10,664 bases of DNA from a virus (lineage: Duplodnaviria; Heunggongvirae; Uroviricota; Caudoviricetes): positions 1 through 10,664 of IMG/VR virus record IMGVR_UViG_2675903575_000010. One strand, given 5' to 3'. The notes beneath the pieces were generated by a model. That model saw only the letters and a list, made by a program, of their open reading frames with translations, ran no database searches and was not told the origin of the DNA. Both the position numbers and the translations under genes were made by a program. Below, piece after piece: positions 2,516 through 3,101 of the stretch; position 1 is the first letter of the stretch; every line of letters begins with the position of its first letter.

Positions 2516-2695
2516 TTACTCCTGCTCTTTGGCCTTGCGCCGCTGGCGGCGTTTGATCTCGCCTTGCATTGACGTAATGATGAATTGTGATGTGCTTTCG
2601 CCTGATTCTTTCACTGATTCCATGGCGTTTACTATTTCGTGTGGTACACGAGCCTTTAGAGCTTGTGATTTTGCGTTTGTTGTACCCGTTGCCAT
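2516..2695 (-). CDS. Arc/Mnt-like ribbon-helix-helix DNA-binding protein (putative repressor), 59 aa
   Basis: Translation MATGTTNAKSQALKARVPHEIVNAMESVKESGESTSQFIITSMQGEIKRRQRRKAKEQE. The segment RVPHEIVNAMESVKESGESTSQFIITSM aligns by eye with the phage P22 Arc strand-helix-helix region (RWPREVLDLVRKVAEENGRSVNSEIYQRV). Strong SD AGAGGA 6 nt before the ATG. Divergent from the rightward operon. Confidence 0.65.
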   Translation of the reverse strand: MATGTTNAKSQALKARVPHEIVNAMESVKESGESTSQFIITSMQGEIKRRQRRKAKEQE

Positions 2696-2756
2696 TTCTA
2701 TTCCTCTGGTGGATTGGTGGGGGACAGTATACACAGAAAAAGCACAAATAAAACTC

Positions 2757-2798
2757 TTGACGTGGGCCACACCTAAAACATATAGTGGGCCACACCTT
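2757..2798 (+). promoter_or_regulatory. Sigma70-like promoter (TTGACG, 18-nt spacer, TATAGT) overlapped by two direct GTGGGCCACACCT repeats; candidate operator for the RHH repressor
   Basis: -35 at 2757-2762, -10 at 2781-2786. Repeats at 2762-2774 and 2785-2797, each containing GTGG-N-CCAC dyad symmetry. About 100 bp upstream of the first ORF of the rightward operon. Confidence 0.5.
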
Positions 2799-2894
2799 AA
2801 AATTATCAAGGCGCATAAATGCAAAGCCCCGCAAGTGTCGTTACCACTCGCAGGGCTTCTAACCACCAACGATAGCAGAAGTATCGAGGTAGCT

Positions 2895-3101
2895 ATGTTA
2901 AATCATACCACACACCCGCAAGGGCGGGACTCGCACAACCTGAATAAATACATCTGGCGTTTTATCGCCCTGAGCGCGGCACAACCGCGCGTGATTACCA
3001 TTGAGGCCACCAACGAACAGGAAGCGCGTCAGCAATCTCCTGATGGCTGCGTGATGGTATTCGCCGCCCGTATTCGTCAGGAGGTGCGCCATGTGCAATA
3101 A
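2895..3101 (+). CDS. Small protein (68 aa), first gene of early operon; possibly Icd-like (host cell division inhibitor family), tentative
   Basis: ATG at 2895 with GAGGT 4 nt upstream. The 372-aa ORF in the track (1983-3101) is read-through of non-coding DNA; only this 3' part looks like a gene. The family call rests on a remembered resemblance, not a search. Confidence 0.5.
   Translation: MLNHTTHPQGRDSHNLNKYIWRFIALSAAQPRVITIEATNEQEARQQSPDGCVMVFAARIRQEVRHVQ

Follow-up and report, generated by a model that had tools for sequence, protein, structure and literature searches.

The window, as we call the whole stretch of 10,664 nucleotides analysed here, is a PICI-type phage satellite of E. coli, and UTAK-5 carries an identical copy of this island, adjoining a tRNA-Pro gene. 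Next to the integrase gene (1-1242) lies alpA (1772-1978, plus strand; Pfam Phage_AlpA, E = 4.5e-8), the known activator in Gram-negative PICIs of this type (PMC6092414). Convergent with alpA is the leftward gene under study (2516-2695, minus strand), which encodes the 59-aa protein MATGTTNAKSQALKARVPHEIVNAMESVKESGESTSQFIITSMQGEIKRRQRRKAKEQE, a proposed repressor of the YlcI/YnfO family with a predicted ribbon-helix-helix (RHH) fold; we refer to it as the RHH gene. On its other side, the rightward early operon begins with an icd-like gene (2895-3101, plus strand; 68 aa; NCBIfam NF033153, 69.8 bits against a cutoff of 25) and continues through three small genes into a D5-type primase gene (4080-5885, 601 aa), identified by Pfam D5_N, Pox_D5 and DUF5906 and by its RefSeq annotation. 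SSB, a ClpP-capsid fusion and terS follow downstream of the primase, in that order. The regulatory region is shared, at about 91% identity, with EcCICFT073, the prototype Gram-negative PICI, whose operators are the same and whose RHH protein differs from that of the window by one residue.

A second small leftward ORF (2261-2458, minus strand; 65 aa) lies between alpA and the RHH gene. Its homologues were restricted to the window and CFT073 among about 80 loci, it had no Pfam or NCBIfam match, and its sole match was a PHROG of unknown function. Both leftward products share a KEQE-stop C-terminal ending, and the 3′ ends of the two genes have a 25-nt repeat of 80% identity in common (2259-2283 and 2514-2538). 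Two minus-strand hairpins with U-tracts (2010-2037 and 2135-2160), resembling terminators, were found downstream of the leftward genes; as both lack a plus-strand T-run, they would not be expected to stop transcription running rightward from alpA.

The control region between the RHH gene and the icd-like gene contains the rightward early promoter P_R (2757-2786, plus strand), which consists of a -35 hexamer TTGACG (2757-2762), an 18-nt spacer and a -10 hexamer TATAGT (2781-2786). The first-pass annotation had proposed exactly this promoter, and it was confirmed as matching 10 of 12 consensus positions and as the sole sigma-70-like site that a consensus scan found in 1500-3300. Two direct 13-bp repeats had also been described, one in the spacer and the other across the -10 hexamer and start site, and both proved to be exact copies of GTGGGCCACACCT. 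The first, O1 (2762-2774; core GTGGGCCACAC at 2762-2772), takes in the final base of the -35 hexamer and from there occupies the spacer; the second, O2 (2785-2797; core 2785-2795), takes in the final two bases of the -10 hexamer and extends over the expected start site at about 2792-2794. When the 199-nt intergenic region was shuffled 5000 times, no shuffle had a direct repeat longer than 12 nt and one reached 12 nt, so the exact pair of 13-mers is not due to chance. The exact 11-mer core had no other occurrence anywhere in the window. However, the count of two sites was incomplete, since a third, weakest and degenerate copy, O3 (GTGGGGGACAG, 2717-2727, plus strand), had been overlooked; it has three mismatches to the core.

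O3 lies on the probable promoter of the RHH gene. A leftward -10 hexamer, TATACT (2726-2731, minus strand), has no recognisable -35 and for that reason was not called by the consensus scan, and the sequence CAGTATAC at this hexamer is nearly invariant in 64 distinct relatives. O3 extends over the final 2 nt of the hexamer and over the site where leftward transcription is expected to start. Its position on TATACT mirrors that of O2 on TATAGT, with each operator beginning at the fifth base of its -10 hexamer. Inside the RHH gene, the palindrome GTGTGGTACAC (2639-2649) also fits GTG-N5-CAC; it encodes a conserved R-V-P-H and is thus probably a coding coincidence.

The RHH gene and its product

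The RHH gene had been described as transcribed leftward from a Shine-Dalgarno sequence, and the sequence bears this out: the ORF is present on the minus strand and AGAGG (2703-2709) lies about 7 nt before its ATG. A CTCC block complementary to this Shine-Dalgarno sequence is kept in the consensus of 64 loci. Among 71 distinct coding sequences, wobble positions varied and codon positions 1 and 2 were conserved, from which we conclude that the gene is under selection at the protein level. The satellite proteins make up a small, separate group, amounting to 90 clusters (50% identity) in a set of 1.84 billion proteins, and a tblastn search of deposited phage genomes found no member.

An Arc/Mnt-type RHH signature had been claimed for this protein. 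The fold part of this claim stood, as a prediction, but the family part did not. The protein matched NCBIfam NF041551 (YlcI/YnfO) with 68 bits against a cutoff of 30, residues 9-50 aligning to profile positions 1-42 of 42, and its RefSeq name is likewise YlcI/YnfO. No Pfam family was reached at threshold by the protein or its relatives, Arc and RHH families included. The Arc/Mnt profile (PF03869) gave no match for the protein of the window and one below threshold (E = 0.012) among 35 relatives; the other sub-threshold Pfam matches among relatives (CB_ParB_C, PSK_trans_fac, HicB_lk and RHH_5), like Arc, also pointed to RHH. An AlphaFold (AF2) monomer model built with 35 homologues had a mean pLDDT of 90, with an extended N-terminus and helices at residues 19-28 and 35-58. 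The fold predicted by this model is a ribbon-helix-helix, a strand-helix-helix of about 45 residues as in the MetJ/Arc superfamily. The turn between the helices is of the RHH type, G-x-(S/T/N), with G32 in 66, E33 in all and S34 in 61 of the 71 coding sequences. Foldseek comparison of the model with the PDB returned nothing, nor did a sequence search of the PDB. The C-terminal helix is basic and invariant (EIKRRQRRK), in parallel to the invariant flanks of the operators described below. Relatives of about 100 aa also exist (P0062, P0065, P0069 and that of locus L069 from Yersinia pekkanenii), in which the C-terminal helix and basic tail are present twice and which gave two matched stretches in the profile search.

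Operator layout and covariation among relatives

A scan of one genome per species yielded 78 loci, from Escherichia, Enterobacter, Citrobacter, Serratia, Yersinia, Pectobacterium, Dickeya, Xenorhabdus, Proteus, Morganella and others. In all, about 120 related Enterobacterales loci had the same layout and fell into about 29 classes. Counted from the start codon of the RHH gene in 74 loci, O3, which always ends in CAG, lies at offset 21 in almost all relatives and is followed by the nearly invariant CAGTATAC. Then come an A-rich stretch, the TTGA of the -35 hexamer at offset 61 (68 of the 72 loci where one was detected), O1 at offset 66, the -10 hexamer and finally O2, 22-25 or 35 bp after O1, which is direct in some classes and inverted in others. 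O3 occupied the same position as in the window with 0-3 mismatches and was almost always the poorest of the three copies. The operator unit can be written as (G)TG-N5-CA(C): columns 2 and 9 never vary and columns 4-8 have an entropy of 1.4-1.9 bits. The three copies agree within a locus and differ between classes, and the 28 types of operator core pair almost one to one with 29 types of beta-strand. The first gene of the operon was Icd-like in 70 loci, and AlpA was called in 54 of the 74 loci analysed. No further operator copies above chance were found within 4 kb on either side of any locus (547 kb searched, including the surroundings of alpA, int and primase), which confines the regulon to one divergent promoter pair. 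Two Xenorhabdus loci appear to have undergone natural deletions between operator copies: L016 retains a single O1/O2 fusion and has lost the -10 hexamer, and in L031, where O3 is fused to O2, both promoters are gone.

Distances between operator cores correlated with distances between beta-strands (Mantel r = 0.57), a covariation that is partly linkage, as the gene adjoins its own sites, and that comes from loci which are not phylogenetically independent. The correlation with the interleaved spacer DNA was weaker (0.24), so linkage alone does not explain it. At the level of single residues, mutual information with the operator centre was highest for residues 14 (z = 24) and 12 (z = 21). An alignment with the Arc strand (Q9, N11 and R13) had predicted residues 12, 14 and 16 to face the DNA before mutual information was calculated. 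R16 is invariant, and so are the inner G and C of the operator flanks, while classes that differ only at residues 11, 13 or 15, such as LQVSVRL, LQLSVRL and IQFSVRL, have a common operator.

This correspondence also allowed operators to be predicted. The operator GTGGCTGACAC was fixed for protein P0034 of the E. coli island L081 before its locus was read, and was then found there in three copies. When a look-up table made from the genome loci was applied to 46 distinct IMG/VR loci, the predicted operator had at most one mismatch in 43 of them; two of the other three loci departed from the prediction at O1 alone and agreed with it at O2. New strand variants that kept residues 12 and 14 had the expected operator.

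The sites could in principle be read by another protein, and the repeats might be binding sites through which the activator AlpA acts at P_R. AlpA from P. aeruginosa reportedly binds a promoter element and acts as an antiterminator, a behaviour which favours this possibility. AlpA also activates the genes of EcCICFT073 (PMC6092414). However, the Mantel correlation of operator cores with AlpA was 0.09, and fell to -0.02 (p = 0.74) when the beta-strand was controlled for. Three E. coli islands provide a further comparison. The window and CFT073 have the same RHH class and identical operators with unrelated AlpA alleles, whereas CFT073 and L081 have identical AlpA and nearly identical Icd-like proteins with different RHH strands and operators. 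The beta-strand QALKARV goes with the operator centre GGCCA in the window, and KKLEARV with GCTGA in L081. Both the Mantel values and this dissociation contradict AlpA as the protein that binds the repeats, and we regard it as a very improbable candidate. A second product of the region could be considered, either the Icd-like protein or a plus-strand peptide antisense to the RHH N-terminus. In their favour, stops are kept out of the plus-strand frame, which necessarily covaries with the same DNA, and the PHROG label of the Icd-like families is 'transcriptional repressor'. Nevertheless, the window and L081 have nearly identical Icd-like proteins and different operators, for which reason the Icd-like protein was rejected as the repeat binder; the antisense peptide had no family match or recognisable fold, and the RHH frame was better conserved in every divergence bin. 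We therefore consider a reader of this kind highly improbable. Finally, the RHH protein could be an antitoxin paired with the 65-aa ORF and the repeats its autoregulatory operator. This type II toxin-antitoxin system seems extremely improbable and was rejected because the ORF is neither conserved nor matched in Pfam or NCBIfam; no adjacent toxin gene is conserved, alpA directly follows the RHH gene in many loci, and the best operators lie on the divergent promoter rather than on that of the RHH gene itself. Judged by their sequences, the sites in the three islands follow the RHH protein, neither AlpA nor the Icd-like first gene. Thus the central claim of the first-pass annotation, a divergent small RHH regulator with the early-promoter repeats as its sites, is supported by covariation, by the dissociation among the three islands and by the 43 of 46 predictions.

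The comparison of the window with L081 also delimits what is exchanged. The two islands are 93-100% identical in DNA as far as 2605 and again from about 2870 onwards, and about 60-70% identical in between. These breaks indicate that the N-terminal half of the RHH protein and the whole control region were exchanged as one cassette (2606-2870), comprising RHH residues 1 to about 30, both promoters, the three operators and the leader hairpin. Sets of islands residing in the same genome (L015, L045, L057 and L063; L029, L041, L055 and L069; and others) carry different RHH/operator classes. The same class was present in 1 of 25 co-resident pairs as compared with 10% of pairs from different genomes, a difference that is suggestive and not significant. 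Distinct specificities would explain how related satellites coexist in one genome without cross-repression, a possibility at which these data only hint.

A candidate repressor of the early operon

We propose that the 59-aa protein is a satellite-specific RHH repressor of the operon that runs from the icd-like gene to the primase, and of its own promoter, and we assign this reading a probability of roughly three in four. Comparative genomics strongly supports the repressor interpretation, and we infer repression as such from the geometry and from how the RHH repressors Arc, Mnt, CopG and omega work. Binding would place the two-stranded beta-ribbon of an RHH dimer into the major groove of the 11-bp (G)TG-N5-CA(C) unit, where residues 12 and 14 would read the variable centre and Arg16 would probably read the invariant inner G/C of the flanks. 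Occupation of O1, in the spacer against the -35 hexamer, and of O2, on the -10 hexamer and +1, would block RNA polymerase at P_R, and the replication operon from the icd-like gene to the primase would be silent. With O3 over the -10 hexamer and +1 of the RHH promoter, autoregulation is implied: at a higher protein concentration, the repressor would hold down its own production. The intergenic region moves together with the N-terminal half of the RHH protein as an exchangeable cassette, of which about 29 specificities exist. The sign of regulation would accordingly be negative, and the protein would act as a maintenance repressor to be overcome by AlpA-dependent induction.

Besides the missing Pfam and PDB matches, two features count against the repressor reading. 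The half-sites of RHH proteins are usually adjacent and spaced by about one helical turn, unlike the units of the satellite, which are 23-35 and 45 bp apart, and the leftward promoter has no -35. The latter is only a -10 element and may be weak, which would suit an RHH protein that binds the repeats as an early, Cro-like or homeostatic regulator made after induction instead of as a maintenance repressor. Such a regulator would damp or time the early operon, or would activate its own weak promoter from O1, which lies about 45 bp upstream of the expected leftward start site. In the same direction, AlpA overexpression alone induces the prototype island EcCICFT073 (PMC6092414), so that a repressor must be either bypassed or not the main barrier. 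Even so, we consider a Cro-like role unlikely, since transcription of the RHH gene leads away from the early operon, P_R has the two best sites and the RHH promoter the weakest, as is typical of a maintenance repressor, and the diversification of the cassette resembles that of immunity regions.

The proposed RHH repressor shares features with several known systems. The immI region of P22 (Mnt and Arc at Pant/Pmnt) has two RHH repressors, a single 21-bp operator bound by a tetramer, and control over an antirepressor, whereas the satellite has one RHH protein, three separate 11-bp units 23-45 bp apart, and proposed control over a replication operon; in addition, no satellite member reached the Pfam threshold of Arc. 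The omega repressor (pSM19035, inc18) is the closest in the spacing of units and in tolerating either orientation, with one dimer reading one unit. However, it binds contiguous 7-bp heptads cooperatively, while the satellite units are of 11 bp, pseudo-palindromic and well separated, and there is no relationship at the sequence level between omega and the satellite RHH. YlcI/YnfO (DUF3950) of the lambdoid cryptic prophages DLP12 and Qin belongs to the same NF041551 family as the satellite RHH and has the same strand-helix-G-x-(S/N)-helix pattern. The K-12 ylcI gene (L082, 8252-8446) lies divergent from nohD, unlike the satellite gene at its early promoter; the 390-bp ylcI-nohD spacer contains a cos-like sequence, and no GTG-N5-CAC triplet was noticed there by eye. 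With lambdoid immunity regions, the satellite shares a specificity determinant and operators that are swapped as a mosaic block with sharp identity breaks, as well as many heterospecific types; it differs in the fold of the repressor and in that the break falls inside the repressor gene, whose C-terminal half is constant. Stl proteins are large helix-turn-helix repressors relieved by helper-phage proteins, and are unrelated in sequence to the satellite RHH. We know of no Stl-like helper-phage partner for the satellite RHH, and Gram-negative PICIs are described as AlpA-induced. As for gene order, the repressor gene of Gram-positive PICIs (Stl/Rpr of SaPIs) is on the integrase side and divergent from the replication operon, and its product keeps the island silent, the position and role also proposed here (PMC6092414). 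The RHH gene, divergent from the replication operon and with candidate sites on the promoter of that operon, is placed as expected of a PICI master repressor of the Stl/Rpr kind.

In EcCICFT073, AlpA is the activator, and helper phages induce AlpA (Fillol-Salom et al. 2018, PMC6092414). The same work describes the repressor in Gram-negative PICIs as "unclear" (PMC6092414), and the suggestion that the RHH protein forms a control layer distinct from AlpA fits this literature, which leaves that repressor open. AlpA, Bro-N proteins and immunity RNAs appear in a survey of how Gram-negative PICIs are organised, but the RHH gene does not (PMC10111431). Our literature search found no paper linking a PICI or satellite to ribbon-helix-helix proteins in this sense. 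Mechanistically, the proposed switch is ordinary, an RHH repressor on divergent promoters. What is new is its place, as a candidate repressor/immunity module for Gram-negative PICIs, present in the prototype island and not described in published work. Since EcCICFT073 has the module with the same operators, the question is directly testable with existing strains. The proposal is also the first concrete functional hypothesis for the uncharacterised YlcI/YnfO family. About 29 natural protein-operator pairs on one scaffold, differing mainly at two residues, provide data from which an RHH recognition code could be worked out, and may also supply small orthogonal repressors.

Leader RNA and the stop-free antisense frame

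The leader of the early operon carries a conserved hairpin (2824-2858, plus strand) followed by a nearly invariant UCUNACCA (2858-2865). Because RNAalifold on a MAFFT alignment gave a poor consensus for this hairpin, a manual structure was counted: among 45 distinct relatives, 92% of cells were paired, 8 of 10 pairs showed compensatory changes, and 0 of 500 shuffles were as good. The hairpin was present in both the MFE and the centroid fold. There is no U-tract after it, so it is not an intrinsic terminator on the plus strand. In the fold of 2793-2900, a second, small hairpin (CGAUA...UAUCG; 2870-2889, plus strand) is predicted, which would end in the Shine-Dalgarno sequence (GAGG) of the icd-like gene. 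Rfam gave no family at gathering score for the window or for 2780-2900 taken separately, and neither C4 nor isrK matched at E <= 10. A full-length, sub-threshold match to RF00043, an R1162-like plasmid antisense RNA, was observed at 2824-2896 (plus strand; 23 bits, gathering score 55), sharing AACCACCAAC, the Shine-Dalgarno hairpin and the start codon. It prompted us to consider a countertranscript ending at the leader hairpin, which was rejected as no antisense promoter for it was found in the window. As in the satellite, an AlpA/Vis-type gene lies upstream in P4, with a primase operon downstream and a structured leader before the first early gene; the immI region of P1 (c4-icd-ant) shares the icd-like first gene. 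By contrast, the immunity factor of P4 and P1 is an RNA (CI or c4), whereas that of the satellite would be a protein repressor with putative DNA operators and with no Rfam C4/isrK match.

A plus-strand frame in phase with the ATG of the icd-like gene is free of stops from 1941 to 3101 (ORF 1983-3101). From just before the alpA stop, it covers both leftward genes in antisense orientation and then crosses the promoters and operators. Measured through O1 in 72 distinct relatives, the median length without a stop was 816 nt in this frame, as opposed to 63 and 27 nt in the other frames. In loci with alpA directly beside the RHH gene, the start of the frame lies no more than about 100 nt from the alpA stop. 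Within the RHH gene, the NNT-CAN dicodons that would give TGA on the other strand were found 2 times in 336, compared with 21.7% T at wobble positions overall, and tyrosine is almost absent from the RHH protein. The peptide of the antisense frame is not conserved, and selection therefore appears to act only against stops.

From this pattern in the sequence, we tentatively suggest a dual-coded switch, possible though well short of probable, in which transcripts from the upstream, AlpA-activated promoter would be translated through the stop-free frame of about 1.1 kb and would bypass the repressor at P_R. The repressor would stay on P_R during induction while read-through went around it. Translated read-through would be shielded from Rho, would open the structured leader, and would collide with and pair against transcription of the repressor gene. 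In P4, translated transcripts from the upstream promoter PLL escape RNA immunity, an escape that the stop-free frame of the satellite parallels. Untranslated early transcripts of P4 are terminated (PMC4825925). If true, the dual-coded switch would be the protein-repressor counterpart of the PLL bypass, and translated read-through would explain how AlpA alone induces the island.

A possible Shine-Dalgarno sequence and ATG for the frame are present at 1985-2000. RefSeq has a 160-aa 'Icd-like' CDS (L001, 9423-9902, corresponding to 2622-3101 of the window) that overlaps the RHH gene on the opposite strand, and the same gene is called at 66 aa in CFT073. The 160-aa call looks like a consequence of the stop-free frame.
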